A stretch of DNA of 64,000 nt from Candidatus Thalassarchaeaceae archaeon (GTDB taxonomy: Archaea > Thermoplasmatota > Poseidoniia > Poseidoniales > Thalassarchaeaceae): contig JASMLH010000003.1 of assembly GCA_030748775.1 (NCBI GenBank), positions 24,281 to 88,280 on the forward strand, in the 5' to 3' direction. Below the pieces are notes generated by a model. It saw only the letters and a list, made by a program, of their open reading frames with translations, searched no databases and was not told the DNA's origin. Below, piece after piece: positions 4,506 through 26,512 of this stretch (positions within the stretch are counted from its first letter, which is position 1; each line of letters begins with the position of its first letter). Position numbers and translations under genes: made by a program.

Positions 4506-4582
4506 TCCTTGGGAGTTGTACGAACGACGCTCCATTCTGCTTAAGACCCGTAGTTAGCGCCAACAAAACGAGACTGTTAGCG

Positions 4583-7500: not shown

Positions 7501-10500
7501 CTCATTGTTCGCCGTAATGCTCAGAATGGCTGGGATGCCAACAAGGAAGGTCACAGGATTCTCTGGAGGAAGCTGGGACGGCAAAGCGCTCAGTGTGTAC
7601 GGCAAAGACTTCACCACTTGGGTCGAAGTCCATCTTCAGACAAACCAAAATCAAGGAGACCTGGATGTTGGATGGGTTCCATTCGAGGCATGTCCAGAAA
7701 TGTCTTCGGTGGAGGTGTTCGACGAGAAGTGGGGCCCGACTTCCGTAGAGAGGAATACAACAATCTCAGAAACGATATGGCTCGAGGGCACCCTGGTATT
7801 CTCAGGTAATTCGACTGCAGTTGACAATATAACGCTGTCAATGTACTTGGTCGCGCCTGAGGACTCAGAAAACATCCCTGGGAGCTCGGCCATCTCGGAA
7901 CACCTAGTTGCAACCACAGTTACTGACCAAAATGGATCATTCAATCTAACTGGACTTCCTCCATCCGTAATCAGGCCCGGATTCGCCTCCCTTGTGATTC
8001 AAACTTCACAGAAAGCATACGTAGGTACCCAGGGCATAACATTCCCCTGGCAACTCAATGTAACAGATGACGTTTCAATCTCAATTTCTGAGCCAACACC
8101 AATCAATGCTCCAATGCTCGGAATAGGTGTTAACAGTACAATAATCGGTCAGATTTCATGGGCAAGCTCCCCTAACCTAGACCCCTCATTAGTTGACGAC
8201 TTGGAGGTAATTCTGAATTACTCATCTGCCGTCGACGGCGAAGTATCTCTAACCTCCAGTGTTTCCGGTGGGGGCTACTACGAATTCACAGTTCCTATTG
8301 ACGAGACTGAGCCACTAGGTCCAATTAACGCCTCAATTAGTTTTGATGGATGGCACAGCATAGACCTAAACAACGCCACACCGCCCGCTTACCACGCCCG
8401 TCCAGGATCTCTTGACTTGGAATTCAACATCACTCTTTCTCCAAACCTGACTGTTTCCTTGGAATCCCAGGGAACAAACAACACAGTTCTGGAGATCGGC
8501 TCGAACATTTTCCTCAATGGAACGGTACTTAGTAGGGGCGAGAGCCCGTCGACACTGAATGGGACCCTAATTCTGGAGATGAGACGGTCAGACATCTCTG
8601 GACCGTATCTGCAACTAGCCTCATGGTACCTGAATGATACTTCTTGGGGGCCTTCTGATGGGGAATTCTCCGTATCATGGCCCTTCTCTCCCGAAGATGT
8701 GCCCATACCCGCTGGGATAGTGGACGTTAGGATACAGTTCGATGCCGACAATCTAAATGCGAACGATCAGAAGCAATTCGTAGACGGTGAATTCGGCATT
8801 CGTAGCATAATTCAGTTCACTTATTCACTGTCTCCCGAACCTAGGGGGATTGAGGCTAACGTTGAGGTCTTGCTAACTGATCACACCGGCCTATCGTTTG
8901 CATCATTTGAGGGTGACTACAACCTCGATTTCGATGGCGAATGGGCTTGGAATGAGACTGATCCAAGCTCTCCCAAACTTGGCGTCAGTTGGACACCTGA
9001 AGTGGATATGGATCCTGGTGATTACTCCTGGGTCCTGACTTACAACGGGTCCACATGGATGGCCCCCAATTCTACATCTGACACAGTGAGAATCCAAGGA
9101 CTAGCGAACGCCACAGCTACCTTTGGAACGGACTGGACTCCAAGAGGAGGAACAAACTGGATATCGGGCTCTGCGAGAGACATTGTCCTGAATACGCCAG
9201 TTACAGGAAACAACTCTTCCGTGACAGTTCTTCTCCAAGTCCCTTCAGACCTACCGGCGACCCCCGATGGATTCCCAGCAGGTCCAGACTCGTACACTGT
9301 CGCTTCTGGTTGGATAGACCCCTCAAGCGGGACATACAACCTGACATTTGGAATTCCCAGCGGAATCACTTCTGGCGTTTACCAGGTTCTGGTAAGGCTC
9401 GATTTCAACTCAAACCCTCCGCAGGGAGGGAGTTACTACAAGACCAATGACCCAACCTCTACCCTTACTGGGGTACAGTCGGAGTTCGTCGTAGATACCG
9501 AACCCAATGCAGTAATACTGGTGGCCGGCGAGCAACTCATTCTTTCCACTGTTGTTACAGACGTTGAGGATCCTTCCGAGTTTATCGGCGGGGTCTCGTT
9601 GGACCTATACTTCGACTGGGGAGGTCCCCAGGAGCAGATACTCCAGTCCACCACAACTGGACCATCGGGAGAAGCAGAATTCAACCCCATAATCCCATCC
9701 TCTGTCGCTCCTGGATTCTACGACGTCCGAGTTCATGCGCCTGATGACCTTGTTGACAACCTCTCATCATCCAACGCTGGAAGGTGGCTGGGGAATGAAA
9801 GCATCACCAATCTGACGGTACAGGTCGGGAGTCTGGTTGATATCGTCAGTATACCCACTCAAGTTACTGCGTTGCAGTACTTCACAATAGAGGGCACCGT
9901 CCTTGATTCAGTAGATTCAAACAGGTCAGTTGATGGCCCCGTAGGGATCAACGTCTTCTTCTTGGATGAGCCAGCAGAGTTACTAATCGAAAACCACACC
10001 ACCAACAGCAATGGTAGCTTCAACGTCTCAGTCCCCACCGACACATTGGGGAATGGGGTTATCCGGGGTGATAGGACAGTAGTTGTTAGCGTAGTCAACG
10101 GCTCCACCCCATTTTACCTGACTGGAACGGGGGACGCTTCGATATTGGTCTTAGGAGTTCCCTGGTTCCAGGACTCCACTCCCTTCATCAACACCATAAT
10201 TGATAGAGGCGAAACTGCAACGATGACGGCTAGGCTTGTAGAGTTCAGCAATAACGACGCGCCTCTATCCGGATTCACCGTTCTGGCTAGGTTCCACGAT
10301 ACATGGTTGGACCCACAGGTCACAGCGGCCGACGGAAGCGTCTCTTTCGACTTCCAGGTACCTCACGATCACCCTCTCGGGCTGGTAAATGTCACATTCC
10401 TCTTCAATGGTTCAAGTGACCTCCATCCCACAATTGACATCCTGAATACAATCACCGTTCGCTCAACTTCTAGCATGTTCATAGATCCTATTTCGGAGAA

Positions 10501-13500
10501 CCCAATGGCCGGCGATTTCTTCAACATTACTGGAAATCTGGTTTCGAGCAACGGCAGCGCTCTAACCGACAGGAACGGAAACCCTCTGAATCCCACTCTC
10601 ACATTCACGATTGATGGAGAATCTGATACATTCATAGTTACCCAGGTATCATTTCTCGCAGATGGAACTTGGAATGCCGAGTTGAGACTAGACCTAACTT
10701 TCCCAAGAGGAGCTCATGCAATTAGCGTCGTTTTCACTCCCGAAGTAACCTACTTCACTTCCGCTTCGGGCCTGGCTGCCTTCGATAGCAGGGGGTACTC
10801 CCAACTATCAATTGTCAGCCCATCGGACCTAGACCCAGATAGCAGGACCATCAGAGGTGACTCATTCGAACTGAACCTAACAATAGTTGACAATGCCGGA
10901 GATCCAGTTCCATCAGCCACACTCGTTGTTGAGATTGACGGTACTACGGTGTGGGGGGGACTCTCAAACCTACAAGGTGAGGCATCAGCATCCATACTAG
11001 CAAGGCCCGACAGAGATCCAGGACCCATGCTCGTAACCGTATCCTTCTCAGGCATTAACGGCACGACAGGGCTGGTTGGTGACGAGACATGGACAAGAGT
11101 TGTGGTTCTTGCCCCCACTGAGATAACCATCATCGGAGTAACTCAGCCGTCAATAGCCGGAGAATCGATTACCTTCTCGGGTAAACTTGTAGACGAGTTG
11201 GGCCAGATTCTACAGGAGGACGACGTTAAATCAGGAGGACTGGTTCACCTATCGATCGATGGAGTAGACGTCGGTCCGACATTCACATCAGTCTCAAACT
11301 CCACAAATGGGCTATGGGAAATTTCCTATCCAATCCCCATGGACATGGATTACGGTGCACATTCCGCTACCTTCGACTTCCTAGGGGGATTCTCATGGGT
11401 GGACCCAATGGGACAGGGTGACTCAATAAATCCGGAGTATTATCTGGACTCCTCGATTTCTCTGACATTCAATGTCACCCAGACCTCTCAAGTCATTATC
11501 TCGACCCCACCTAGCGAGGTAGACAGAACCGATGTTGCCTTGGTTGAGGGTATTCTGACTGACGGAATCGGAAGATCGCTACCCAACAGGGAACTTTCTG
11601 TAACTGTCGACGGACAGATTCTAACAGTGATTGTTGCTGATATCAATGGGTCATTCACCGCCTTGATCCCTATTTCACCGGACATGCCTCTCGGCCCACT
11701 GATTATCAATGTAGGATTCTTAGGGGAACAATTCGTTCTGCCCTCAAATTCCTCAACCGTACTAACCGTTTTTGGACCAGTATTCGTAGAGCTCGGAGAT
11801 ATCGATCCGGTTGCAGTAGGTGATACTCTCAGAATCAGCGGAACCGCCAAGGACAACCTGGATGATGGATGGCTGGGCAACCACACAATCGAGGTTTTCG
11901 TGGACGGTATTCTCATGGGCATTTCCAGTACTGCAGACAACGGTTCCTGGGTTCTCCCATGGGTGGTTCCCGACACAGTTGACGTTGGAAATCACACACT
12001 CTCGGTGATATCGCCATCTCAGGGATTCCACAGGCAAGGAAGCACTGAAGCTACATTCACGGTGTCGTACCACACGTCAATTTCCCTCCAAATAGATGAG
12101 CACTATGCAACTAGGGGCGAGCAATGGAACTTCACAGGTAGGCTGTTCGAATCTGACACCGGTTTCGAGTTGGGCATGGATGGCAGAATGGTCTCAGTGA
12201 CCCTCGACGGCTTAACGATAGGGGAGGTCACCACCGAGGTCGGAGGTTTGTTCAGCTACTCTGTCAGCATACCATACTCGATGAGTAGGGGGGCGCATAA
12301 CGTCAGCTTCCAATACGAGGGAGAGTTCCTATACCTGTCATCGGAAACCAATATCACAGCTTTCGCCTTGTCTGACATCTCGATAGAGCTTCAGCCAATT
12401 ACCAACTCCATTATCAGAGGCAGCACTTTCCCCTCCGAGAACATAATGATCCAAGGATTGGTCAGGGAGATAGGCGGGGACTCCACGATTTTCGAGAACC
12501 TGACCCTGACACTAACATGGGGGGAATCTAACCTGCCCATGATAGAAGGCCCGTGGGACAATCCCAATACTCTAAATTTCCAGATCAGGGCAAAGGCCCA
12601 GGAATACATGCCTCCAGGGGAGAATGTGGTTACTATTACTATTGAACAGGATCAATCTAGATTCATCAATGGCGTATCCAAAGATGTCGAAATCCTGGTA
12701 ATGGTCGAGGTAGACTTCGTGCTATCTGAACTGGACCTCTCCCAGGGTCAGAGAGTAATCAGGGGGACCGTGAATGCCACTGCAAGGGATACGGGCGAGC
12801 CTCTGGAAGGGCTATCCATGACTGCCATTCTTCTTAATGGAAGCACATCTCACTTTGCCATGACAAGATTCACAGATTCTGAAGGTGTTTTCGAGTATGA
12901 GTTCAAGTCCCTATCACCCATGCCTCCATTGTCAGATACTTCTTCGTGGGGCGTCCTAAGCGTGCTCTTGGGTTCCGATTCCGACTACATAGATCCTGGG
13001 AGCCTATCCCTACTTCCACTAGACGGCGTTCAGATCCAATACGAGGCCGAGCAAAGCGGGTCAATCTTTGGTTCGCTAGCCTTCGTCGTAACCTTCGTTG
13101 TAGCTCTTGCTGCTGCTTTAGCCGTTGGATTCACAGTATTGTCGAGAAGGAAGAGGGCGGCGATAAAGGAGCTAGCAGGAATTTTCAGCCAGACCGCAGA
13201 GATGCTAGCTTCGGGGGACGAGTATAGGAAGGCAATATTCGAGTGCTACGAGAGCCTTTGCTCGGTATTGACCAGGCGTGGCTTCCTCAGGAGGAACTTC
13301 GAGACCGTGAGAGAGTTCGAGAACGCCATACGAATCGCGCTCCCTATTCGCGAGGAGTCCCTGGTGGCCCTAGACAGGATATTCGAGGAGGCCAGGTACT
13401 CCAGTCACGTAATGGGGGACTCCCACAGGGAGAACGCACAGCTTGCTCTCTCCTCTGTCATCCAAGACATTGAGGAACTCCAAGAGATTCCTGTTCGGGC

Positions 13501-13522
13501 CGTGCAAGACGTCGAGGCCTAG
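4583..13522 (+). CDS. Giant (~2980 aa) surface protein: DxDxDG Ca-binding repeats, transglutaminase-like domain, Ig-like repeats, TM, DUF4129-like C-terminal domain
   Basis: Many DSDGDG(L/M)PDGWE-type repeats in the first ~760 aa; YWRWHTYDYYTG (TgpA-N-like); GSCDEFASLFAVMLRMAGMPTRKVTGF..TWVEV..GWVPFE core; TM near the end, then AIFECYESL..RRNFETVREF..LDRIFEEARYS (DUF4129-like). ATG 4583 preferred. Confidence 0.8.
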   Translation: MLFSSGNYQSLDISSKRRSAFAFTFFLMMSSHAAMQFGIWEAKATTDQDGDGLPYGIEFLINTQPQDWDSDNDGLPDGWEWQYGLDPLSASGDNGSTGDPDSDGLTNLNEYLYGIPIGWDEPSTTNVLDNGVWWNGTVPVRNWDEESAMQVIQGTGTDGADEDPVGNICTDSFDNDHDGMVDSNDGDNDGDADCSSDDDDGDGLIDEDPNGWDTDGDGMPDGWEAANGLDPTSNSNQDGTFGDPDSDGLVNIYEYVNPAWGTRNGSTFPPTQYFRPGPINMTITESPCNPILSLGPGGCQIFTAEVDGITQTDPFNNDTDGDGLNDSLEALVILTDPTSPDTDSDGVWDGVEYNGSYGDPAQGSDPRNNNTDGDHLDDGEEDLNGNGVIDENETDPTRVNDEGDFDGDGIQNWQENLTCTLWNVSDTDGGGVSDGDEKIPWHGTDPCTSRSELEFTIVEWDESTAALELNSTTNLNPNPVDWRNMGPLAYYESPNGSRTPFSFTSIDVNLLRGVDTPLPDGVSSVVFTNGSWCWNATSGAINDPHCDDDYFDSDGDGLADWEETFGIWGYVSLANLADSDGDGVDDLSEIQNDTDPLEPCHNLLDSDEDGLNNYFENTTGCAIRFGVQGGNLTFDIWQTLWNQADSDNGGVDDGQEYIDGTNPQDNPDDDIDPLDTDGDGIPDSVELEIGTDWRDPDTDGGGVPDGEECPPEFWLLDCIGAPSNPFDPTDDLDENALMFTAANTTAGMDPGITHYWRWHTYDYYTGVSWGVNSTLVGYTPIVDDWSTDQGVADQTFWNHSSPLSWEINFDDAGFISPGRELIQPYNVQNFTTWVDFSAGLNFSNYTRDVLVDSSTIESLYVNAPEVILSAEVRENTTAFSGATYGLDLPSDFLGSLEGQGVSTVTQEVLNQSGALSAWDKISAIQDFLINGNETITFLRNYDGSGRLDGLGSDSDVSYWMLNSSHEGSCDEFASLFAVMLRMAGMPTRKVTGFSGGSWDGKALSVYGKDFTTWVEVHLQTNQNQGDLDVGWVPFEACPEMSSVEVFDEKWGPTSVERNTTISETIWLEGTLVFSGNSTAVDNITLSMYLVAPEDSENIPGSSAISEHLVATTVTDQNGSFNLTGLPPSVIRPGFASLVIQTSQKAYVGTQGITFPWQLNVTDDVSISISEPTPINAPMLGIGVNSTIIGQISWASSPNLDPSLVDDLEVILNYSSAVDGEVSLTSSVSGGGYYEFTVPIDETEPLGPINASISFDGWHSIDLNNATPPAYHARPGSLDLEFNITLSPNLTVSLESQGTNNTVLEIGSNIFLNGTVLSRGESPSTLNGTLILEMRRSDISGPYLQLASWYLNDTSWGPSDGEFSVSWPFSPEDVPIPAGIVDVRIQFDADNLNANDQKQFVDGEFGIRSIIQFTYSLSPEPRGIEANVEVLLTDHTGLSFASFEGDYNLDFDGEWAWNETDPSSPKLGVSWTPEVDMDPGDYSWVLTYNGSTWMAPNSTSDTVRIQGLANATATFGTDWTPRGGTNWISGSARDIVLNTPVTGNNSSVTVLLQVPSDLPATPDGFPAGPDSYTVASGWIDPSSGTYNLTFGIPSGITSGVYQVLVRLDFNSNPPQGGSYYKTNDPTSTLTGVQSEFVVDTEPNAVILVAGEQLILSTVVTDVEDPSEFIGGVSLDLYFDWGGPQEQILQSTTTGPSGEAEFNPIIPSSVAPGFYDVRVHAPDDLVDNLSSSNAGRWLGNESITNLTVQVGSLVDIVSIPTQVTALQYFTIEGTVLDSVDSNRSVDGPVGINVFFLDEPAELLIENHTTNSNGSFNVSVPTDTLGNGVIRGDRTVVVSVVNGSTPFYLTGTGDASILVLGVPWFQDSTPFINTIIDRGETATMTARLVEFSNNDAPLSGFTVLARFHDTWLDPQVTAADGSVSFDFQVPHDHPLGLVNVTFLFNGSSDLHPTIDILNTITVRSTSSMFIDPISENPMAGDFFNITGNLVSSNGSALTDRNGNPLNPTLTFTIDGESDTFIVTQVSFLADGTWNAELRLDLTFPRGAHAISVVFTPEVTYFTSASGLAAFDSRGYSQLSIVSPSDLDPDSRTIRGDSFELNLTIVDNAGDPVPSATLVVEIDGTTVWGGLSNLQGEASASILARPDRDPGPMLVTVSFSGINGTTGLVGDETWTRVVVLAPTEITIIGVTQPSIAGESITFSGKLVDELGQILQEDDVKSGGLVHLSIDGVDVGPTFTSVSNSTNGLWEISYPIPMDMDYGAHSATFDFLGGFSWVDPMGQGDSINPEYYLDSSISLTFNVTQTSQVIISTPPSEVDRTDVALVEGILTDGIGRSLPNRELSVTVDGQILTVIVADINGSFTALIPISPDMPLGPLIINVGFLGEQFVLPSNSSTVLTVFGPVFVELGDIDPVAVGDTLRISGTAKDNLDDGWLGNHTIEVFVDGILMGISSTADNGSWVLPWVVPDTVDVGNHTLSVISPSQGFHRQGSTEATFTVSYHTSISLQIDEHYATRGEQWNFTGRLFESDTGFELGMDGRMVSVTLDGLTIGEVTTEVGGLFSYSVSIPYSMSRGAHNVSFQYEGEFLYLSSETNITAFALSDISIELQPITNSIIRGSTFPSENIMIQGLVREIGGDSTIFENLTLTLTWGESNLPMIEGPWDNPNTLNFQIRAKAQEYMPPGENVVTITIEQDQSRFINGVSKDVEILVMVEVDFVLSELDLSQGQRVIRGTVNATARDTGEPLEGLSMTAILLNGSTSHFAMTRFTDSEGVFEYEFKSLSPMPPLSDTSSWGVLSVLLGSDSDYIDPGSLSLLPLDGVQIQYEAEQSGSIFGSLAFVVTFVVALAAALAVGFTVLSRRKRAAIKELAGIFSQTAEMLASGDEYRKAIFECYESLCSVLTRRGFLRRNFETVREFENAIRIALPIREESLVALDRIFEEARYSSHVMGDSHRENAQLALSSVIQDIEELQEIPVRAVQDVEA

Positions 13523-14018: not shown

Positions 14019-16028
14019 TCAATTCATCTCAAAGAACCTCTTTACCCTCTCAGACGTTCTATGTGGTCCCGAGGTCTGGATTGTCTGCATACTCTTTGGA
14101 AAACAATCGGCAACTCTTTTCTCAAGAAGCCTGCTCTCAAGTAGTACCACAATTGCTCTGTCTTCTTTCTTCCTTATCGGTCTCCCAAGAGCCTGTAGTA
14201 CGCTATTTACAGCCGGTTGAAGACTTGCATACTTCCATGCCTTTGACCTTCCAAACCTACCAGAGTAGTACTCCAGAAGGGCATCCTGTCTAGCGCTGGG
14301 TGGAGGAAGTGGTAAGCCAACACAAACAACTGCGTTCAGGATATTCTCAGTATAATCAATCCCTTCGGATAATTTTCCACTTAGGACTCCGAATAGTACT
14401 GTTTCGCGACCCATGTGCCTCCTCTCATACATAGATGCGATCATCCTCTCAATCTCCCTTTTTGTCATCCTCCTACTCTCACTTTCAATTATTTTACCAA
14501 AGGTCCAATCTGATGCATCATTGAGCACCCTCTCCATCATTGCATAACTCGGGGAAAACACTGCCACATTCCCTTTCGTCCCCTCAAGTACGCCTCTTAT
14601 GTGGTCTCTAATAGAGGGAAAACTCCTCTCCCTCTCGGTATACTTGCTAGTCACGTCTCCTGCGATTAGAATAGGCCTGTTTTCAGGAGGGAAGTTCGAA
14701 AGGTACTCTTTGCAGGAAGAGTTTTCTTCCGGAATGCCTAGAATCTCAGAGTACATGGTTGGTGGGAATAGTGTTCCTGACATTAGTATTGAACCTGCAC
14801 ACTCGTTGAAGATGGGTCCACCCACAACACTTGGGTCAAGCAAGTGACTCGTCACCCTCGGCTCATCGAGATCGTTGTCGAAAACCAATGCGAGAGCAGT
14901 GCTATCCCTATATTTGATGCAAATATCCAGGATTTCTGCTAGCCTAGTGCAGTCATTCTGCTCATCCTCATCTAAGTCTTCGTCTTCCTCAATAATTACC
15001 GAAAGAAGACGAGAATTCATCATCCTGATTCTACCAATCCAATCTGAAGACCCATCTTCATCTATGGATTCTATTGCACTTGCAACCAATCCAAGGAATT
15101 CCCCAGTATCTATTCTTATATCATCGCCCTTAGAATTTCTGTTTTCAGCCGTCTTCCTTTCGAACCATCTTCGTAAATTCCCATCATCCCTCAGGGACTT
15201 AATCTGCTTCTCAAGCAAAACAGCATCTTCCAAACTATTAGACATAGGCAAGTCGAGTTGCCGCTCACTCCTCTGTAGGTTTTCCTTGTACTCTTCAACA
15301 TCTGATAGGGCCCGTTGAAAAATCCTCTCCGTAATCCTCCTCTCCAAGCCACTCCTGATTCTATCCGGCAGATTATGCGCCTCATCAACGATTAGAATCG
15401 TGTTCTCCAGTTCTATTCCCATTACTGGTAACGAACTATCTCTGACAGATTCCACGAATACGTGATTGTAGTCACAAACAAGGATTTGCGCATCCCTTAC
15501 TGATGATCTCGCTGTCGCCCAAGCACAAATCTTCCTGGCCCTGCCTTCCTTTACTGTCTGTTCAACGTGTTTGGGAGAAGACAATATGAATTCGCATAGA
15601 TCCGCTCTCCTAGACTTTCTTGCCGATTCTGCAACATCTTCCTCACATCCGCATTTCCCAGTTGATTTGTCAATCACCTCGCACATACCTTCCCTGCCGA
15701 TAATGTCCACTAGTCGAATCTTTGGAAGACCAGTTGGGAGCTTTGAGTTAATTTGCTTGACTGTTTCAACAACAATCCTGTGCTGAGCCTGCCTCCCGGT
15801 GAGGAAAACAATCTTCGGAACCGTTGGGTTCGTGTTGTAGAAGTTGGTAACTTCTAGTGCGGATGCCAATGCTGCAGCCGTTTTCCCGATTCCCGTTGGG
15901 GCTGCTGCTAGTAGAAATCCTCCTTCTCTGAGTGAAATAATCCCATCAGATAGCATTTCACTCTGCGACTGCCTCGGCACATCATGCGCGAAGAACTGTC
16001 GCGCTTCCACTATGCTTTCGCCGGTCAT
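14019..16028 (-). CDS. xpd: XPD/Rad3-family Fe-S ATP-dependent DNA helicase
   Basis: APTGIGKT (motif I), Cys cluster (GMC..KCGC..LC..KIC), CDYNHVF, IVDEAHN (motif II), MSGTL, LSEGID, QALGRPIR (motif VI). ATG 16028 preferred over TTG 16079. Confidence 0.88.
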   Translation of the reverse strand: MTGESIVEARQFFAHDVPRQSQSEMLSDGIISLREGGFLLAAAPTGIGKTAAALASALEVTNFYNTNPTVPKIVFLTGRQAQHRIVVETVKQINSKLPTGLPKIRLVDIIGREGMCEVIDKSTGKCGCEEDVAESARKSRRADLCEFILSSPKHVEQTVKEGRARKICAWATARSSVRDAQILVCDYNHVFVESVRDSSLPVMGIELENTILIVDEAHNLPDRIRSGLERRITERIFQRALSDVEEYKENLQRSERQLDLPMSNSLEDAVLLEKQIKSLRDDGNLRRWFERKTAENRNSKGDDIRIDTGEFLGLVASAIESIDEDGSSDWIGRIRMMNSRLLSVIIEEDEDLDEDEQNDCTRLAEILDICIKYRDSTALALVFDNDLDEPRVTSHLLDPSVVGGPIFNECAGSILMSGTLFPPTMYSEILGIPEENSSCKEYLSNFPPENRPILIAGDVTSKYTERERSFPSIRDHIRGVLEGTKGNVAVFSPSYAMMERVLNDASDWTFGKIIESESRRMTKREIERMIASMYERRHMGRETVLFGVLSGKLSEGIDYTENILNAVVCVGLPLPPPSARQDALLEYYSGRFGRSKAWKYASLQPAVNSVLQALGRPIRKKEDRAIVVLLESRLLEKRVADCFPKSMQTIQTSGPHRTSERVKRFFEMN

Positions 16029-16068
16029 GGAGTCTGCCCTGCAAATAGAACGACCAAGAAGATTGGCA

Positions 16069-18981
16069 TCATCGAACAATGATTGCCTCAGAGTCTCTAC
16101 TATCTAGGACGACCCTCAGAGGGTCCTCCAACCTCACATGCCTTAATCCCATTTCTTCGGTCTCCGAATTGATTGAATCGAGCCACTCCCAGTCTACCAT
16201 GTCATCACTCATTATTGTCAGGTATCCTATGTTGAAAGTCACGATGTTCTGGAAGAAGTGTGTACCCTGTGAAGGATCTACGTGTATATCGGCCATGGGA
16301 GCTTCAACAATTGTCTTAGCCCCCATAATCTGATTCCACTGCACGGGAATTCCGAGAGAGGGATCCGACGAGCCCCATCTTCCGGGGCCAATCAGAACGT
16401 ATGGTCTACCCTCTTCCCTAAGCCTTGCATCAATCTCCTCGATTAGGGGGACTAGGTCAAAGGTCCTCATTCTGTTCATGCGGTCAGGGTGTACGTATAT
16501 CACATCACAAATTCCCTCAATCACTCCGTTGCCTAGTGACTTGCTGCTGATGCACACTGCTCCCTCCCTATCGACCTCGTCCAGTTTGATGTCTATGTCT
16601 ACCGACTCGTCCATCAGGGGCCTGACTTGCAGAATGGCGAACTTCTTCACCCCCCTTGCATCATCAACTTCTATGGCGAACTCGAGTTCAATGGGAGAGG
16701 CTAGGAAATCCTCGCAAGTCTTCAGGACATGGTCCAGAATTTGAGCAAGTGGGAACTTGTCGTGCTTCAGAACTGGCGCGAAGGTCACCAATCTTGAACC
16801 ACCTGCACGCCTGATGGAATCAACGATACGGTCATCAGAGGAAACATAAGTTGAACCTACAAGGGACAGTCTGCCGTCTTCTTCAGCATCTGCTAGACTC
16901 AAGTGGAGCAGATTCTCCTCTTCCGATGGCCTAACGTCTCCTTCGTCCATATCCATTGGAATTGCGAAGAACCTGCTTTGCGAGGTTTCTATGATCGAAT
17001 CTGTGCTATGGAACTGATGGATCCTCTTTGGCTGACCCGGGCTGAACCTCAGGCACTTGCCTCCTGTCGAAACCTGCCTTCCAAGTCCAATGCAAACTGC
17101 GGCTAATCCATCTTCCATCTTCAACGGGTCTACTGGGTAATGGTTCCTGCTCCTTGCTGCTCCAGAAATATCGGGGTAGAACCTTCCATTTGCTTCTCTT
17201 CCAACTACCTCTTGAATGACCACTGCCATACGCTCGTCTTCAATGTTGTTTGCCGTCGCTGTAACGTATGCCTTTGCACTGCTGTGAAAAATTGATGCGT
17301 AAACTAGTTTGATCGCTTGGAGCAGCCTTTTCAGCCTAACATCCAATTCTGGATGGTCATTGCCAATCATGTATGTTGCATAAACGCCGGCGAATGGCTG
17401 GTGGCTTGAGTCTTCCAATAGGCTAGATGAACGGACCGCTATCGGCCATTGTGTCTTGTTCAGCATATCCCTAATCTCCCCAATCTCTTCTTCTCCGAAG
17501 GAACCTCGAAGGAATGCCTCGTTGACCTCTTCGTCGCTCCTGTCCTCGTATGCAAACCTCGATAATTCATTTCGGGAAATGAAATCCCCGAAAATACCTG
17601 TTCCAATTACCACTGAGTTCGGAACTACGAATTCGACCTCAGGAAAAGAATCACCCAACCTCAATTCTTCCATCCTGGTGTAGAAGAAAGCCAGTCCTCG
17701 ACCCTTCCCACCCAGGCTACCTCTGCCTATTCTCTGGAACCCAGATTTTTCGCTCCCCGATGCATGGTCACGGATTGTCTGCCTGCTCACTCTGGAAATG
17801 TGAGACCTGATTGAACCCGAAACATATTTCCTCACTCCCTCCGAATCATCGAAGTCATCAAGCGTCATAGGCCTGATAGAAGCTGCCAGAGAAAACTCTG
17901 TCCTCGCCCTAAGCCAGTGTGAGAACTCGTTCCTTTTTGCATGGAATTCTATGGTCTCAATCGGTACATCGTCAACCAAGTCTGCAAGATTCTCCAGGTT
18001 CGATGCTCTACATATCTCACTTCCCTCTGGTGTCCTGAAGATAAAATCCCCGAAACTCATCTCCTCAAGCATGAACTCCTCAATCCTCTGGTAGAGAAGC
18101 GGATCTTCCTTATGCAGGAAAGGAATTCCCAATGCCTCCGCTTCTTCCTTGAGCTCGATATTCTTTGACTGGAGAAGAATAGGCAGATATCTATGCCCGC
18201 TTTGTGCATATTTTACCAACTCCAGTCCAGCAACGTCCCTCTCGCCAGATTGATTTGGGAATCTACCATCGGTGAAAACTCCAATGATATTCCTAGAGTA
18301 CTTGTCGATAATCTCCTTGGCCGAGTCCATATCGGATGCAAGTAGAATCTTAGCCCTAGCTCTAAGTCTTAGCAGCTTCTCATGCAGATTCCCTCCGTCA
18401 CCGATCAGTCTACTGGTCTGTCTGACTAGTTGAGTATAGAGTAGAGGGAGATATGCCGAGTAGAATCTACGACTGTCTTCTACAAGGAGAATAACTTGAA
18501 CGTCACCGTCCCTAACATCATTCTCGACGTTTTTCTCGTCTTCTATCAACTTGCATATCGAAAGCAATATCCTACTATCTCCTCCCCAGACGAAAATCCT
18601 GTCTATTCCATCTCCCGTCTTGAGAGTAGCCAACTCTCGGGTATTTTGACTAAGCAATACCACCGGGATGTCTTCATGAATGCCTTTTACCGTATTAGCG
18701 AAAGTATTCGCATCCATCGTTCCCACCTTTGACATTGTGATGATTAAGTCAAATTTCCTAGTATTCAGAAGGCTCATGGCATCCTCTGCATCAGGGCTAT
18801 GAATAATCCTAGGAGCTTGAGATAGGTTCAGAATCGAGTATTCCTCCTGGAGGATCTCTGCAAGATAACCCGACTCTTCGAGAATATATCGATCGAATTG
18901 ACTAGCAACCAGTAGAACCTCCCTTATGCGGTAAGGCGTCAGGCGCTCGAACTTGTTCCAGTCTGAGATACTCCCGTCCAT
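16069..18981 (-). CDS. Tandem receiver-like domains + PEP/pyruvate-binding (PPDK_N ATP-grasp) domain + C-terminal His-containing domain
   Basis: Receiver-like VLLVASQFD..FDLIITM and ILLVEDS..GVFTDG..LPILLQS; ATP-grasp motifs GSLGGKGRGL, AVRSSSLLEDS..PFAGVY, MAVVIQEVVG, IELEFA, ILQVRP; C-terminal GPGRWGSSDP..GIPV..PSQGTHFF. Confidence 0.85.
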   Translation of the reverse strand: MDGSISDWNKFERLTPYRIREVLLVASQFDRYILEESGYLAEILQEEYSILNLSQAPRIIHSPDAEDAMSLLNTRKFDLIITMSKVGTMDANTFANTVKGIHEDIPVVLLSQNTRELATLKTGDGIDRIFVWGGDSRILLSICKLIEDEKNVENDVRDGDVQVILLVEDSRRFYSAYLPLLYTQLVRQTSRLIGDGGNLHEKLLRLRARAKILLASDMDSAKEIIDKYSRNIIGVFTDGRFPNQSGERDVAGLELVKYAQSGHRYLPILLQSKNIELKEEAEALGIPFLHKEDPLLYQRIEEFMLEEMSFGDFIFRTPEGSEICRASNLENLADLVDDVPIETIEFHAKRNEFSHWLRARTEFSLAASIRPMTLDDFDDSEGVRKYVSGSIRSHISRVSRQTIRDHASGSEKSGFQRIGRGSLGGKGRGLAFFYTRMEELRLGDSFPEVEFVVPNSVVIGTGIFGDFISRNELSRFAYEDRSDEEVNEAFLRGSFGEEEIGEIRDMLNKTQWPIAVRSSSLLEDSSHQPFAGVYATYMIGNDHPELDVRLKRLLQAIKLVYASIFHSSAKAYVTATANNIEDERMAVVIQEVVGREANGRFYPDISGAARSRNHYPVDPLKMEDGLAAVCIGLGRQVSTGGKCLRFSPGQPKRIHQFHSTDSIIETSQSRFFAIPMDMDEGDVRPSEEENLLHLSLADAEEDGRLSLVGSTYVSSDDRIVDSIRRAGGSRLVTFAPVLKHDKFPLAQILDHVLKTCEDFLASPIELEFAIEVDDARGVKKFAILQVRPLMDESVDIDIKLDEVDREGAVCISSKSLGNGVIEGICDVIYVHPDRMNRMRTFDLVPLIEEIDARLREEGRPYVLIGPGRWGSSDPSLGIPVQWNQIMGAKTIVEAPMADIHVDPSQGTHFFQNIVTFNIGYLTIMSDDMVDWEWLDSINSETEEMGLRHVRLEDPLRVVLDSRDSEAIIVR

Positions 18982-19031
18982 GTGTCATGTCTCCGTGAGC
19001 GGCATCGCATTTCAGAAGACCGGAGGGTTGC

Positions 19032-19049
19032 CCCGCACGAGAGTGCGGG
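19032..19049. other. Perfect 7-bp hairpin CCCGCAC-GAGA-GTGCGGG in the leader of the 970-aa gene
   Basis: Inverted repeat read directly; GNRA loop on the + strand, UCUC loop on the - strand. Confidence 0.5.
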
Positions 19050-19068
19050 ACGTGTGTGTGTGCTGAGT

Positions 19069-19260
19069 CTAATTTTTGTCAATAATCCCATGGATCCTTG
19101 GTGCCTGCTTAGAACCGTAGCCTACTGCATTTGACAGTTTGGCCCTGTCCCTGACCTTCCTAAGTCCGGAACCGAATCCCTTTGACTCGGTTGAATTTTG
19201 GTTGGGGGAGCGGGACGACCGCTCCCCCGAGTTTTTGTTGTGCATCCCATCATCGCTCAA
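19069..19260 (-). CDS. Small basic hypothetical protein (63 aa), probably translationally coupled to the RHH gene
   Basis: TTG start 5 nt after a perfect GAGGTGA Shine-Dalgarno that overlaps the RHH stop codon; fills an otherwise empty gap. Confidence 0.5.
   Translation of the reverse strand: MSDDGMHNKNSGERSSRSPNQNSTESKGFGSGLRKVRDRAKLSNAVGYGSKQAPRIHGIIDKN
19204..19228. other. Perfect 10-bp GC-rich hairpin GGGGGAGCGG-GACGA-CCGCTCCCCC, followed by GAGTTTTT on the + strand
   Basis: Inverted repeat read directly. Terminator-like only on the + strand, which is antisense to the local genes. Confidence 0.45.
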
Positions 19261-19269
19261 TCTCTCACC

Positions 19270-19635
19270 TCAAGCGTTCGAATCTTCGTCAAATCTAGAG
19301 CGCAGATCGTCCATCCGCCTCTTCAGGAGCTCCTGTACGGTTGCCCCTTGGATCATTTCTTTGCTAATCATCTCCCTAGCAGCCTGCCTAAGTACGACAT
19401 CTGCAGTCTCCCCGTAGATCTTACAGTAGTCCCGTAGTCGGATAGTTAGGTCGGGCCCAAGGTTAACTTCTACCCTGTCTCCTTGCCCTGGCAGGGGGCT
19501 TGCCAGCATTCTTCTTACTGCTTCCCTGACAACATCGGACCTATTCCTCATTCCGTCAAATCCGACCAACCTGTCCAATTCCAGAAGATGATCTTCTGGT
19601 ATTCTTAGCGATACCATTGGACTGTTGCCTGCCAT
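19270..19635 (-). CDS. Ribbon-helix-helix (CopG/NikR/CdrS-like) transcription regulator
   Basis: MVSLRIPEDHLLELDRLV....NRSDVVREAVRRML is a classic RHH; a second RHH-like unit follows (VEVNL..DLTIRL..YC..ADVVLRQAAREMI). ATG 19635 has an upstream AGGAGG; the longer ORF-track start runs through the promoter. Confidence 0.85.
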   Translation of the reverse strand: MAGNSPMVSLRIPEDHLLELDRLVGFDGMRNRSDVVREAVRRMLASPLPGQGDRVEVNLGPDLTIRLRDYCKIYGETADVVLRQAAREMISKEMIQGATVQELLKRRMDDLRSRFDEDSNA

Positions 19636-19672
19636 CTCCGGTTCCTCCTGAGTTTCCGAGACACTAGGGTGG

Positions 19673-19700
19673 CATATAATTGTATTGCAATTGAAATACA
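19673..19700 (-). promoter_or_regulatory. TATA-like box (ATTATATG, 19680-19673) with an adjacent 20-bp palindrome TGTATTGCAATTGAAATACA (19681-19700)
   Basis: The palindrome matches its reverse complement at 18 of 20 positions; AT-rich divergent intergenic region between the RHH and HD genes. Confidence 0.6.
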
Positions 19701-19764
19701 TTTGAAAGACAAAATAATTGATTGTCGATAGCTTATGATTCAGAAATTCAGTTCTATTGAAGGC

Positions 19765-21111
19765 ATGACTACTCTTGGGATGGTCGGTGATGCTGTGAAA
19801 ATCATCAACGATGCAATCCATGGCCAGTTCAAGTTGGAGGGAGTTACTGAGGAACTCTTAGGGACTCCCGAGATCAATAAGCTAAGCCACATCAAGCAAT
19901 TGGGACTTGCTCACCTGGTCTTTCCAGGGGCCCATCACACTAGGTTTGAACACTCGATGGGTGCCTCGCACATCGCAGGGATGATGGCCGACTCTGTGGG
20001 TTTGGACCAACACGAGAAGGCTACTCTAGAAGTAGCAGCAATGCTGCATGATGTCGGACATGGTCCCTACTCGCACACGCTTGAGCACATACTCAGTGAG
20101 AGGGGAGGCAAGGACCACATGTCAGTAACAGAGGGGATAATTATGGGGGATTACGATGTTTTGATCGAGGGGGAGGGTCTACCGTTATCTGACCGTGACT
20201 CAATCCCAGAAATTCTGGAAAGAAACGAGCTCGAACCAAAACACGTGGCTTCTCTAATTAGAGGTCCAGATGCATCCGGAAAGGAGCGCTCTCTAACCAA
20301 TTGGACAGAAGGAATGTCGGACTTCTCCGGCGATGACAAAACAATGGCGCATTTGATTCATGGTTCTGTGGATTGCGATCAGTTAGACTTCCTCCTCAGA
20401 GACTCTCATTTCACAGGAGTAAAGCATGGAGTGGTAGACCTACACCCCCTTGTCGGCTCATTGGGGAGCCAAGGGGGGGACGTGGTAGTCGATCAGGGTG
20501 GTCTTTCCGCATTGGAAGGAATGCTCCTAGCTAGGGGGCTAATGTACAGTTCAGTATACTTCCACCGTGTAACAAGAGTTACGGAGGTCATGCTCTCAAG
20601 GGCAGTCGAGAAGGCAGGAGACAGTCTCCCCGACTCCCTTGATCTTCAGAGGCGAGTCGATGCAGAAATCTGGGGTGCCCTTTCGGATTCGGGGGGTTTC
20701 GCCAAGGACATGATTACACGTTTGAAATACAGAAAGTTACTGAAAGTCTGTCTTAGTAGGAGAAAGGAGGATCTTTCCAAGGAAAATATTGAGTTCCTGG
20801 CATCTCTGGCCAATGACTCAAATGCCAGGAGGGCACTTGAGGACGATCTAGCCCACCGTTCAGGATTGGAACCCGGATATGTCGCAATTGACGTACCCAG
20901 TGTAAAGCTTCTATTATCAGAGCCTAGAATGTCACAGGTCGATGTTAGGATAGTAGGTGATGATGGAAAAACAAGGTGGTTGAGGGAGATGACCCCAATG
21001 GCAGATGCTCTGAAGAAAAGGCAGGTAAGTCAGGATGTTGTCTACGTTATGACTGTACAAGGTTCGGAGAAGAAAGTCGCAGAAATAGCAGAACGACATC
21101 TATTTTCATAG
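19765..21111 (+). CDS. HD-domain phosphohydrolase (dNTP triphosphohydrolase/SAMHD1-like)
   Basis: INDAIHG, L..IKQLG...VFPGAHHTRFEHSMG, LHDVGHGPYSH, DCDQLDFLLRD, R..MYSSVYFH. Start uncertain (19735, 19765 or 19780). Confidence 0.85.
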   Translation: MTTLGMVGDAVKIINDAIHGQFKLEGVTEELLGTPEINKLSHIKQLGLAHLVFPGAHHTRFEHSMGASHIAGMMADSVGLDQHEKATLEVAAMLHDVGHGPYSHTLEHILSERGGKDHMSVTEGIIMGDYDVLIEGEGLPLSDRDSIPEILERNELEPKHVASLIRGPDASGKERSLTNWTEGMSDFSGDDKTMAHLIHGSVDCDQLDFLLRDSHFTGVKHGVVDLHPLVGSLGSQGGDVVVDQGGLSALEGMLLARGLMYSSVYFHRVTRVTEVMLSRAVEKAGDSLPDSLDLQRRVDAEIWGALSDSGGFAKDMITRLKYRKLLKVCLSRRKEDLSKENIEFLASLANDSNARRALEDDLAHRSGLEPGYVAIDVPSVKLLLSEPRMSQVDVRIVGDDGKTRWLREMTPMADALKKRQVSQDVVYVMTVQGSEKKVAEIAERHLFS

Positions 21112-21145: not shown

Positions 21146-22567
<1,422 letters not shown>

Positions 22568-26401: not shown

Positions 26402-26512
26402 TTTCTACCGTGTTTGGACTCGCCCTCGATTCCAACCGTTCTACGAACGGTTAAAACAAGCGTGAAGGTCGCGGCGCTGCTGAGCCCTAGGCTTGATGGT
26501 CCGGTGGATGGG

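Follow-up and report, generated by a model that had tools for sequence, protein, structure and literature searches.

A tandem-receiver protein with a PPDK_N-type ATP-grasp domain and an unannotated histidine-bearing domain, encoded near glutamate dehydrogenase genes in archaea and bacteria

Domain architecture of gene X

Gene X lies on the reverse strand at positions 16069–18981 of the window (the whole stretch of 64,000 nucleotides analyzed here, from a Candidatus Thalassarchaeaceae archaeon) and encodes a protein of 970 residues, composed of a pseudo-receiver, a receiver, a helical linker, a PPDK_N-type ATP-grasp domain and a new His-bearing domain, in this order; all features of X given below are on the same strand. 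The ORF, the domains and the distance to the glutamate dehydrogenase (GDH) gene gdhA, recorded in a preliminary description of this DNA, were all confirmed, and recomputation from the ORF places the codons of D238 and H908 at 18268–18270 and 16258–16260, respectively, as given there. The functional reading offered with these observations is supported in part.

The first receiver (residues ~17–160; 18502–18933) is an aspartate-less pseudo-receiver, in which T82-M83 of the motif FDLIITM stand at the acceptor position and A26-S27 replace the acidic pair. The lack of an acceptor Asp, seen initially in the single sequence, extends to all 89 homologs compared, where the site is occupied by Met, Thr, Asn, Val or Ala (Asp in 0/89). 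The second receiver (residues ~161–295; 18097–18501), which carries an additional helix inserted after α1, does retain its acceptor Asp, as previously described, within an intact pocket formed by E168, D169, D238 (the predicted phospho-acceptor), S272 and K291. This quintet is 89–98% conserved among 89 sequences from more than 20 phyla (E168, 85/89; D169, 79/89; D238, 84/89; Ser or Thr at 272, 87/89; K291, 85/89) and, except for D169 (at least 90%), is invariant in 74 Poseidoniales sequences. Judged by the acidic pair, Asp, Ser and Lys, receiver 2 belongs to the receiver family (PF00072) and receiver 1, with A26/S27 and M83, does not. The Pfam profile Response_reg itself matches receiver 1 only, and weakly (residues 50–116, 19 bits versus a cut-off of 30). 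The secondary structure of the N-terminus in the AlphaFold2 (AF2) model fits two (βα)5 folds, and a Foldseek search with this region found the tandem-receiver protein PleD (E 6e-8), as well as CheB, NtrX and many single receivers. Like PleD-type regulators, X places a receiver and a pseudo-receiver ahead of a catalytic domain, but in reversed order, the pseudo-receiver coming first, and with an ATP-grasp output instead of GGDEF. Receiver 1 is an aspartate-less receiver in the sense of Maule et al. 2015 (PMC4395418), whose list of effector domains enriched for such receivers includes those of the pyruvate phosphate dikinase type; their catalogue gives no function, GDH link, description of the C-terminal domain or intact second receiver.

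The receivers are followed by a helical linker domain (residues ~296–410; 17752–18096), modeled as a β-hairpin plus five helices, with conserved FGDFxF and FSxW motifs, R360 and R370. Its similarity to DUF5752 is faint in X (Pfam E = 0.11) and exceeds the cut-off in some homologs.

The ATP-grasp domain (residues ~411–793; 16603–17751) bears GGK426, R517, E523/D524, Q590, E765/E767 and Q785/R787. It had been called a complete PPDK_N nucleotide-binding domain, and the Pfam match (PF01326; residues 422–793, 115 bits versus a cut-off of 27) indeed spans profile positions 3–313 of 328. The residues of the nucleotide/Mg site are conserved in 85–89 of 89 sequences: K426, R517, E523 and E767 in all 89, D524 and Q590 in 88, and E765 in 85, with Asp in the remainder. 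In Foldseek, this domain matches rifampin phosphotransferase (RPH; 5hv3 and 5hv1, E 1e-12 and 2e-12). The best partial matches in NCBIfam, PigC/RedH and RPH, cover ~150 ATP-grasp residues at 29–50 bits versus cut-offs of 999–1350, and no NCBIfam match of full-length RPH or PigC/RedH (PRK06241) type, including the central substrate-binding domain, is present in X. As Pfam detects neither HisKA/DHp nor HATPase_c in X, the name "histidine kinase" given automatically to two homologs (P0058 and P0109) is unjustified.

The C-terminal histidine domain

The C-terminal α/β domain (residues 794–970, 177 residues; 16072–16602), marked by the motifs GPGRWGSxDP and PSQG[ST]HFFQN, is the most conserved part of X. 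The preliminary description had staked its reading on the conservation of the His in the latter motif, and H908 is the sole universally conserved His, invariant in 89/89 sequences and in a second set of 79/79, and also kept in paralogs at 28–30% identity. In the AF2 model of the domain (pLDDT 92.4, pTM 0.90), H908 opens the helix 114–122 (domain-model numbering), and the linker preceding the domain (791–793) has a pLDDT below 50, in keeping with a mobile domain on a tether.

This domain had been taken for a small domain comparable to the phospho-His domain of PPDK, a view that did not hold by HMM, profile–profile comparison or fold. By eye, its alignment as a diverged PEP-utilizers swivel domain is plausible, and locally the G-[ST]-H at a helix N-terminus resembles, in sequence and model, the GG-x-T-S-H of the swivel domain in PPDK and PEP synthase, enzymes that share the ATP-grasp family PF01326 with X. 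However, no Pfam match to PF00391 (PEP-utilizers) was obtained among 79 members of the family even at E values as high as 10, and the hhalign probability was 0.1% with a set of 6 swivel domains and 0.4% with a diverse set of 19. When the high-confidence model was compared with the PDB by Foldseek, no fold match was obtained (best E 0.046, TM ≤0.30), and chains of PPDK, PEPS, RPH and EI were all absent from the best 50 matches listed. Across the 79 members, Pfam revealed no recurrent or credible family at all (the most frequent hit 4/79, E 0.13), and none for the domain of the window. In genome scans, PF00391 has no match anywhere in seven X-bearing archaeal genomes (G035, G013, G023, G027, G031, G033 and G045), and its matches in the bacterial hosts G153 and G155 (X position comparable) lie away from X. 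X further differs from PPDK and PEP synthase in its domain order and in having no PEP-utilizers_C barrel. The C-terminal domain is therefore an unannotated domain with a His at a helix N-terminus; since it shows no homology to the swivel domain or to any other known phospho-His carrier, we infer a dikinase with a phospho-His rather than assign X to that class by membership, and His908 could alternatively act as a general base or bind a ligand.

RPH of Listeria monocytogenes (5hv1/5hv3/5fbs; PMC4844700), the best fold match (E 1e-12), is a close comparison. Both proteins combine a PPDK_N-type ATP-grasp domain with a His-bearing C-terminal domain behind a flexible tether, and both lack the PEP/pyruvate barrel. 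RPH, however, contains a rifampin-binding domain of ~430 residues and a canonical PEP-utilizers swivel domain, neither of which is found in X, whereas X has two N-terminal receivers; the identity of ~17% is confined to the ATP-grasp domain.

Proteins consisting of the C-terminal domain alone were considered and rejected. Short matches lie mostly on contigs of ~1–3 kb, look like gene fragments, and carry no Pfam domain; of the two cases examined on long contigs, the first comes from a long-read assembly with a frameshift, the second from a tandem copy broken up into three ORFs.

Distribution and linkage to glutamate dehydrogenase genes

The X family is large, unstudied and mostly bacterial, with more than 7,995 homologs and, at E < 1e-30, more than 1,046 clusters at 50% identity, of which the 150 listed are mostly full length; it occurs in at least ~600 species. 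Literature searches on the X architecture, DUF5752 and the GDH link returned nothing relevant, and neither a paper nor an experiment on the family was found.

The gene gdhA, the proposed functional partner of X, lies at 21212–22567 on the forward strand and encodes, according to Pfam, a hexameric NADP-GDH of the Escherichia coli type, matching the E. coli and Corynebacterium glutamicum type of enzyme in the PDB (5gud/5ijz/3sbo) at E 1e-175 or better. It is 2,230 bp away from the start of X, in agreement with the 2.2 kb noted before, and the two genes are divergent, with an RHH gene and an HD-domain gene between them. An association of this architecture with gdh genes in Bacteroidota, mentioned in the preliminary description, was strongly borne out by a neighborhood survey of 80 loci from more than 20 phyla and extends far beyond that phylum: a GdhA ortholog is present in 54 of the 80 loci, and where at least 3 kb is available on both sides (50 of 80), a GDH gene lies within 3 kb in 37/50 and within 500 bp in 28/50. 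Of 22 named phyla, 18 show the link; about a quarter of the well-flanked loci have no GDH gene nearby. No other neighbor is conserved, the next family, a LuxR-type regulator, occurring at 7/81 loci, and neither a transporter nor a further pathway enzyme recurs near X. In several loci (L026, L037, L033 and L029), GdhA-X-GdhA-X-GDH2 arrays are formed, and the several diverged X paralogs of such a locus each adjoin a GDH paralog of their own. The association also holds for variants of X in which the ATP-grasp and His module, including H908, is kept: paralogs of ~1,060 residues fused to NTP_transf_2, which lie beside GDH genes, and a receiver-less form of 592 residues, which adjoins GDH2 (L063). 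Long fused homologs (1,500–1,640 residues) provided no functional clue, Pfam giving only duplicated PPDK_N or unannotated extensions. That GDH is the only regular neighbor of X suggests an undescribed switch on GDH.

A lead from Bacteroides thetaiotaomicron, whose gdhA we take to be BT1970, concerned a segment reportedly of ~3 kb, a size compatible with the X family. It was dropped as unsupported, the neighbors of BT1970, namely BT1969 (malic enzyme) and BT1971 (catalase), being outside the X family; the lead came from a title (Baggio and Morrison 1996, as it stands in the reference list of PMC4539542), according to which trans-acting gene(s) downstream of gdhA affect GDH activity.

Within Poseidoniales, X is an accessory gene (27/151 genomes) and GdhA a core one (148/151), and a joint transfer of the two genes, considered at the outset, is thereby refuted. 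As GdhA manages without X in 121 of its 148 genomes, X can be at most a modulator. In the family of the window (f1), X is located 2.2–2.4 kb from gdhA in 19/20 genomes; in a sister family (f3), the two are on different contigs. Half of the genomes of the same genus have lost or lack X, showing an empty site with the gdhA region unchanged. The intergenic region upstream of X (18982–19269) recurs directly upstream of an XPD helicase gene in X-less relatives, with a mean column identity of 84% to the empty sites of three of them (G019, G077 and G115); its conserved hairpins have no Rfam match. The XPD helicase was discarded as a partner of X, since the two genes are neighbors in this archaeal family alone and the helicase gene persists unaltered in genomes that lack X. 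X in this archaeon is an accessory acquisition, probably of bacterial origin, placed 2.2 kb from a core gdhA.

The lineage had been characterized as poor in two-component systems, with no histidine kinase in the window, and both points hold at genome scale. HisKA is absent from the whole genome of the window (58% complete), and the HATPase_c matches in f1 are GyrB, Top6B and MutL where sequences were checked (G043, plus MutL in G027), the other f1 genomes having matches of the same ORF lengths. The close relatives carrying X have no histidine kinase.

Possible function of the ATP-grasp–histidine module

Our preferred, still tentative reading, to which we give a probability of about 0.4, is that X is a receiver-gated, ATP-driven His-phosphotransferase regulating GDH. 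X would be an orphan response regulator whose output is enzymatic, in which receiver 1 may serve as a non-phosphorylatable adaptor and receiver 2 as the working phospho-acceptor, gating a catalytic module of two domains, the PPDK_N-type ATP-grasp domain and, after a short flexible linker, the new α/β domain with His908. By analogy to every characterized PPDK_N enzyme, the ATP-grasp domain would cleave ATP and transfer a phosphoryl group to His908, and the His domain would then pass this group on to an acceptor outside X. As this acceptor or target, the GDH protein itself is the most likely, given that GDH genes are the only conserved neighbors (~18 phyla) and that X and GDH paralogs are paired; X would then act as an ATP-driven post-translational switch on GDH. 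It is conceivable, though doubtful, that the X family is the "writer" of a widespread, so far overlooked post-translational control of GDH, in which the receiver-gated ATP-grasp domain charges a new phospho-His carrier (GRWG / S-x-G-[ST]-H-F-F) that phosphorylates GDH; between GdhA and RocG-type GDH2, such a writer could toggle the isozymes reciprocally, without a futile NADPH/NADH cycle, and in the histidine-kinase-free Thalassarchaeaceae the receiver of X could be supplied by this His as well.

A rather unlikely alternative is that the module is a small-molecule dikinase or ligase, phosphorylating or activating a metabolite of the glutamate/2-oxoglutarate node, in which case the GDH adjacency would mean a shared pathway. 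All characterized PPDK_N enzymes without a PEP barrel do act on small molecules or glucans, as exemplified by RPH (PMC4844700) and HpeHI (PMC12167813), and the NCBIfam and Foldseek matches of X to PigC/RedH and RPH are of this kind. However, nothing in X corresponds to the large substrate-binding domains of RPH or PigC, its only extra domain being that of 177 residues, and the surroundings of X are devoid of the conserved transporter or additional enzyme of a pathway; diverged X paralogs beside different GDH paralogs are also hard to explain by a metabolite common to all GDHs.

Less likely again is a self-contained relay, in which phospho-His908 would pass its phosphoryl group to D238 of its own or a dimer partner's receiver, making X a one-piece substitute for a histidine kinase and response regulator, with output by protein contact, for example with GDH. 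An intact receiver 2, its pocket essentially invariant in the Poseidoniales sequences, in X-bearing genomes that have no histidine kinase calls for some non-canonical phosphodonor. Acetyl phosphate and similar small donors can, however, load orphan receivers, and bacterial hosts of X encode many kinases. The relay had been put forward in the preliminary description together with an action on GDH, and as the main function it is weakened by the receiver-less and NTP_transf_2-fused relatives: their retention of the ATP-grasp and His module beside GDH genes means that the module has an acceptor other than a receiver Asp.

That the archaeal X merely landed near gdhA by accident and has a function unrelated to GDH there seems improbable to us. 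The placement in f1 may go back to a single evolutionary event, the genes are divergent with two others in between, they are unlinked in f3, and loss or absence of X leaves the gdhA region unaltered; but the prior for landing within 2.3 kb of one given gene is only ~0.3% by arithmetic for a genome of 1.5 Mb, and the same gene neighbors X throughout bacteria. A split PEP synthase or PPDK with its PEP/pyruvate-binding subunit encoded elsewhere, for which the PPDK_N domain and the automatic annotation "PEP/pyruvate-binding domain protein" might speak, has a negligible chance and, as far as genome completeness allows, is refuted for this lineage, as X contains neither PEP-utilizers nor PEP-utilizers_C, no canonical swivel domain exists, no such gene is conserved near X in the 80 loci, and PEP-utilizers_C (PF02896) is absent from the genome of the window and from 10 of 14 related X-bearing genomes (86–97% complete), three of the other four having it in an ordinary full-length PPDK/PEPS-type gene (same ORF as PF00391) and the fourth (G013) only as a 105-residue fragment; the earlier statement that X is not a PEP synthase therefore stands.

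Returning to the preferred reading of X as a phosphotransferase acting on GDH, a conceptual parallel may be drawn with GlnE and GlnD, covalent modifiers of glutamine synthetase and PII, in that an enzyme of ammonium assimilation would come under covalent control driven by ATP or NTP, although X has no sequence relationship to them and its target and chemistry are putative. The X paralogs fused to NTP_transf_2 beside GDH genes carry a Pol-β-type nucleotidyltransferase domain, of the class that GlnE and GlnD use. To our knowledge, post-translational control of prokaryotic GDH is largely unknown outside a few model organisms. GDH stands at the junction of carbon and nitrogen metabolism, and X is a concrete candidate for its control in Acidobacteriota, Ignavibacteriota, Bacteroidota, Gemmatimonadota and the abundant marine Group II archaea. 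If correct, the reading would extend the PPDK-type ATP-grasp enzymes by a new phospho-carrier (or catalytic) domain and explain what a common, uncharacterized response-regulator output does. Finally, and of interest for ocean biogeochemistry, the presence or absence of X within one Poseidoniales genus is a strain-level difference, and the regulation of ammonium assimilation may differ accordingly between strains.

Architecture and conservation of the X family

The protein X (16069–18981, minus strand, 970 aa) has nothing exceptional within its family, which is large and uncharacterised; the genes around family members point at GDH, and the mechanism considered below is a proposed one. A word-indexed search returned more than 7,995 homologs and an exhaustive search at least 1,046 clusters at 50% identity (E < 1e-30); among the 150 clusters listed, most are 950–1,010 aa and match X over its full length. 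At least 597 species carry the family (contigs, one genome per species), overwhelmingly bacteria, including Acidobacteriota, Ignavibacteriota, Bacteroidota, Gemmatimonadota, Eisenbacteria, Desulfobacterota, Myxococcota, Planctomycetota, Actinomycetota and others. The closest homologs among the matches listed are from Poseidoniales (Marine Group II) and are named "PEP/pyruvate-binding domain-containing protein" or "histidine kinase"; on P0058 and P0109, the latter label in public annotation is an error, neither homolog having a HisKA or HATPase_c domain, and could mislead two-component censuses. Nothing was found in the literature on the X architecture, DUF5752 or the GDH connection, and a survey of aspartate-less receivers noted dikinase-type effector domains with no function given.

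Pfam assigns residues 422–793 to PPDK_N (115 bits against a cut-off of 27; profile positions 3–313 of 328), with a below-threshold receiver match at residues 50–116, a faint DUF5752 match at residues 326–395 and neither kind of PEP-utilizers domain. NCBIfam matches (PigC/RedH, PEP synthases, rifampin phosphotransferase) are partial, confined to the ATP-grasp part and far under their cut-offs, and the sole match in a PDB sequence search was the ATP-grasp of rifampin phosphotransferase. The AlphaFold2 model (74 homologs as input; mean pLDDT 83.5) comprises two (βα)5 units in the N-terminal part, a helical linker plus β-hairpin (residues 296–410), the ATP-grasp, a low-confidence linker (791–793) and an α/β C-terminal domain; in a Foldseek search of the PDB, its ATP-grasp resembles rifampin phosphotransferase (E 1e-12) and its N-terminus the tandem-receiver protein PleD (E 6e-8). 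Across 89 members of the family, which span more than 20 phyla, receiver 1 lacks the acidic pair and has M, T, N, V or A at the acceptor position (Asp in 0/89), and the pocket of receiver 2 is kept (E168 in 85, D169 in 79, the predicted acceptor D238 in 84, S/T272 in 87 and K291 in 85). Residues K426, R517, E523 and E767 of the ATP-grasp are each present in all 89 members, and D524 and Q590 in 88 each. The observation behind the preliminary description is confirmed, as are its codon positions for D238 (18268–18270) and H908 (16258–16260) and the 2.2 kb between X and gdhA (21212–22567, plus strand), which encodes an E. coli-type NADP-GDH.

The C-terminal domain is the best-conserved portion of X, with the motifs GPGRWGSxDP ... 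PSQG[ST]HFFQN. Its H908 is invariant in two alignments (79/79 and 89/89 sequences), no other His being universally conserved, and lies at the N-terminus of a helix in an AlphaFold2-type model of the domain alone (79 sequences; pLDDT 92.4, pTM 0.90). In the comparison with the PPDK His domain proposed earlier, the domain is not recognisable as a PPDK/PEPS/RPH swivel domain: no PDB structure was a significant Foldseek match (best E 0.046, TM ≤ 0.30); Pfam searches of the 79 sequences, admitting E values as high as 10, gave scattered single matches and no recurrent or credible family (the most frequent, Ntox47, in 4/79, E 0.13); the PF00391 model had zero matches in X-bearing archaeal genomes, and its matches in those bacterial hosts where positions were compared lie away from X; and hhalign gave probabilities of 0.1% against six archaeal swivel-domain sequences and 0.4% against 19 diverse PPDK, PEPS and EI swivel domains from genomes also carrying the X family. 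Known PPDK_N enzymes all use a His carrier. For this reason, and because the invariant H908 caps a helix in a flexibly tethered domain, context rather than homology suggests that this is a phospho-His domain.

Association with GDH genes and reuse of the catalytic module

In tblastn searches of 80 fetched X loci with the GdhA of the window as query, an ortholog (56–92% identity) was found in the flanks of 54. A GDH gene lies within 3 kb of X in 37 of the 50 well-flanked loci (≥3 kb on either side), and within 500 bp in 28, and the link is present in 18 of 22 named phyla, bearing out the gdh neighbourhood given for Bacteroidota in the preliminary description. All-against-all clustering of 1,044 ORFs flanking X homologs identified GDH as the sole recurrent neighbour, the runner-up family occurring in 7 loci. 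In Ignavibacteriota and Bacteroidota, GDH and X-paralog genes alternate in arrays, ordered GdhA-X-GdhA-X-GDH2 (L026, L037), X-GdhA-X-GDH2 (L033) or GDH2-X-GdhA-X-GdhA (L029), GDH2 being a 415-aa GDH of the RocG/archaeal type. In such arrays diverged paralogs of X are matched by diverged paralogs of GDH, which speaks for a relationship specific to the proteins and not for one via a shared metabolite.

A second family of ~1,060–1,110 aa, which appears to be uncharacterised, is encoded beside X and GDH genes in four loci, on the minus strand in each (L029:5195–8377, L034:5184–8381, L043:14377–17568 and L063:13801–17133), and consists of an unannotated N-terminus, PPDK_N, an X-type C-terminal domain (GPGRWG ... 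SFGTHFFQD) and a Pol-β-type nucleotidyltransferase (NTP_transf_2). A 787-aa relative in L038 has ATP-grasp and C-terminal motifs as in these fused paralogs, with no nucleotidyltransferase match and no GDH gene within the fetched flanks; L063 also encodes a 592-aa form, adjoining GDH2, that contains the ATP-grasp and C-terminal domain only. Because the ATP-grasp and His domain recur in the fused, 787-aa and 592-aa forms, they constitute, as judged from sequence, a catalytic module that is sufficient in itself and has been built into several architectures.

Proposed role of the receivers and alternative readings

In the fused, 787-aa and 592-aa forms, a receiver Asp cannot be the acceptor of the module. 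Since the module exists without a receiver, we favour the receivers as its regulators, and the intramolecular relay from His908 to the receiver Asp proposed earlier is weakened as a primary function and now seems improbable. The best remaining argument for the relay is the need for a non-canonical phosphodonor. No HisKA domain was found in the genome of the window (58% complete), and the HATPase_c matches in X-carrying genomes of the window's family are ORFs of ~650–680, 680–700 and 705–750 aa, which, where fetched (G043, G027), are GyrB, Top6B and MutL by sequence; each of these genomes has one ordinary receiver protein (~230 aa) besides X. With the receiver-2 pocket intact and no histidine kinase found among these matches, the pocket would need a non-canonical donor in these archaea, for which a small phosphodonor and His908 are the candidates. 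A split PEP synthase with its PEP-binding subunit encoded elsewhere is very improbable, as PEP-utilizers_C was found neither in the window's genome nor in 10 of 14 X-carrying relatives, and in three of the remaining four lies within a full-length PPDK/PEPS-type gene, G013 having a 105-aa fragment only. The earlier interpretation is supported in part.

Occurrence and genomic site in Poseidoniales

X is present in 27 of 151 Poseidoniales genomes (12 of the 58 that are of high quality; 7 of 22 genera), whereas GdhA is present in 148 of 151, and therefore the joint acquisition that had been envisaged did not take place. X and gdhA are 2.2–2.4 kb apart in 19 of 20 genomes of the window's family and on separate contigs in its sister family. 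In a FastTree phylogeny whose root is not fixed, the Poseidoniales copies form a single clade (support 98) beside bacterial sequences, which would fit acquisition from bacteria; another Thermoplasmatota copy (L041) falls elsewhere among bacteria.

Within one genus, X is a presence/absence polymorphism. Three X-less genomes of that genus (L094, L095, L096) share the synteny p152 - XPD - ~300 bp - RHH - HD - GdhA - p574 - p258, with an empty site at the exact position of X, inside the ~300-bp stretch that separates RHH from XPD. The 288-bp region preceding X aligns at 84% with the XPD upstream region of X-less genomes, up to ATGGACGG, the start of X in the window. The ~25 bp around ATGGACGG at the X start (18975–18990) have a degenerate copy after the X stop (16030–16075), and the empty sites resemble a hybrid of both copies; this apparent direct-repeat signature points either to an insertion accompanied by duplication or to a precise deletion between the repeats.

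The XPD/Rad3-type helicase ORF (14019–16079, minus strand) is listed with a TTG start at 16079 and an 11-nt overlap with X; alignment with relatives suggests that the true start is an ATG near 16028 (MTGESIVEARQFF), so that the gap would be ~40 nt and the two genes would probably share a transcript, driven by the promoter that serves XPD where X is missing. The RHH–X intergenic region contains two GC-rich hairpins (~19204–19229 and ~19030–19052; arms GGGGGAGCGG...CCGCTCCCCC and CGTCCCGCAC...GTGCGGGGC), both also conserved in the RHH–XPD region of X-less genomes and without a match in Rfam; they may serve as terminators for RHH or as elements of regulation. The ribbon-helix-helix ORF itself (19270–19821, minus strand, 183 aa as listed) probably starts at an internal ATG (~121 aa, 19270–19635); relatives share this portion alone, and the listed ORF in its full length overlaps the HD-domain gene, which is divergent. 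Elsewhere in the window are two giant plus-strand ORFs (4502–13522, 3,006 aa; 26414–36013, 3,199 aa), the first of which has many DxDxDG calcium-binding-type repeats, N-x-S/T sites and a C-terminal membrane anchor plus cytoplasmic tail, and is likely a Poseidoniales surface protein.
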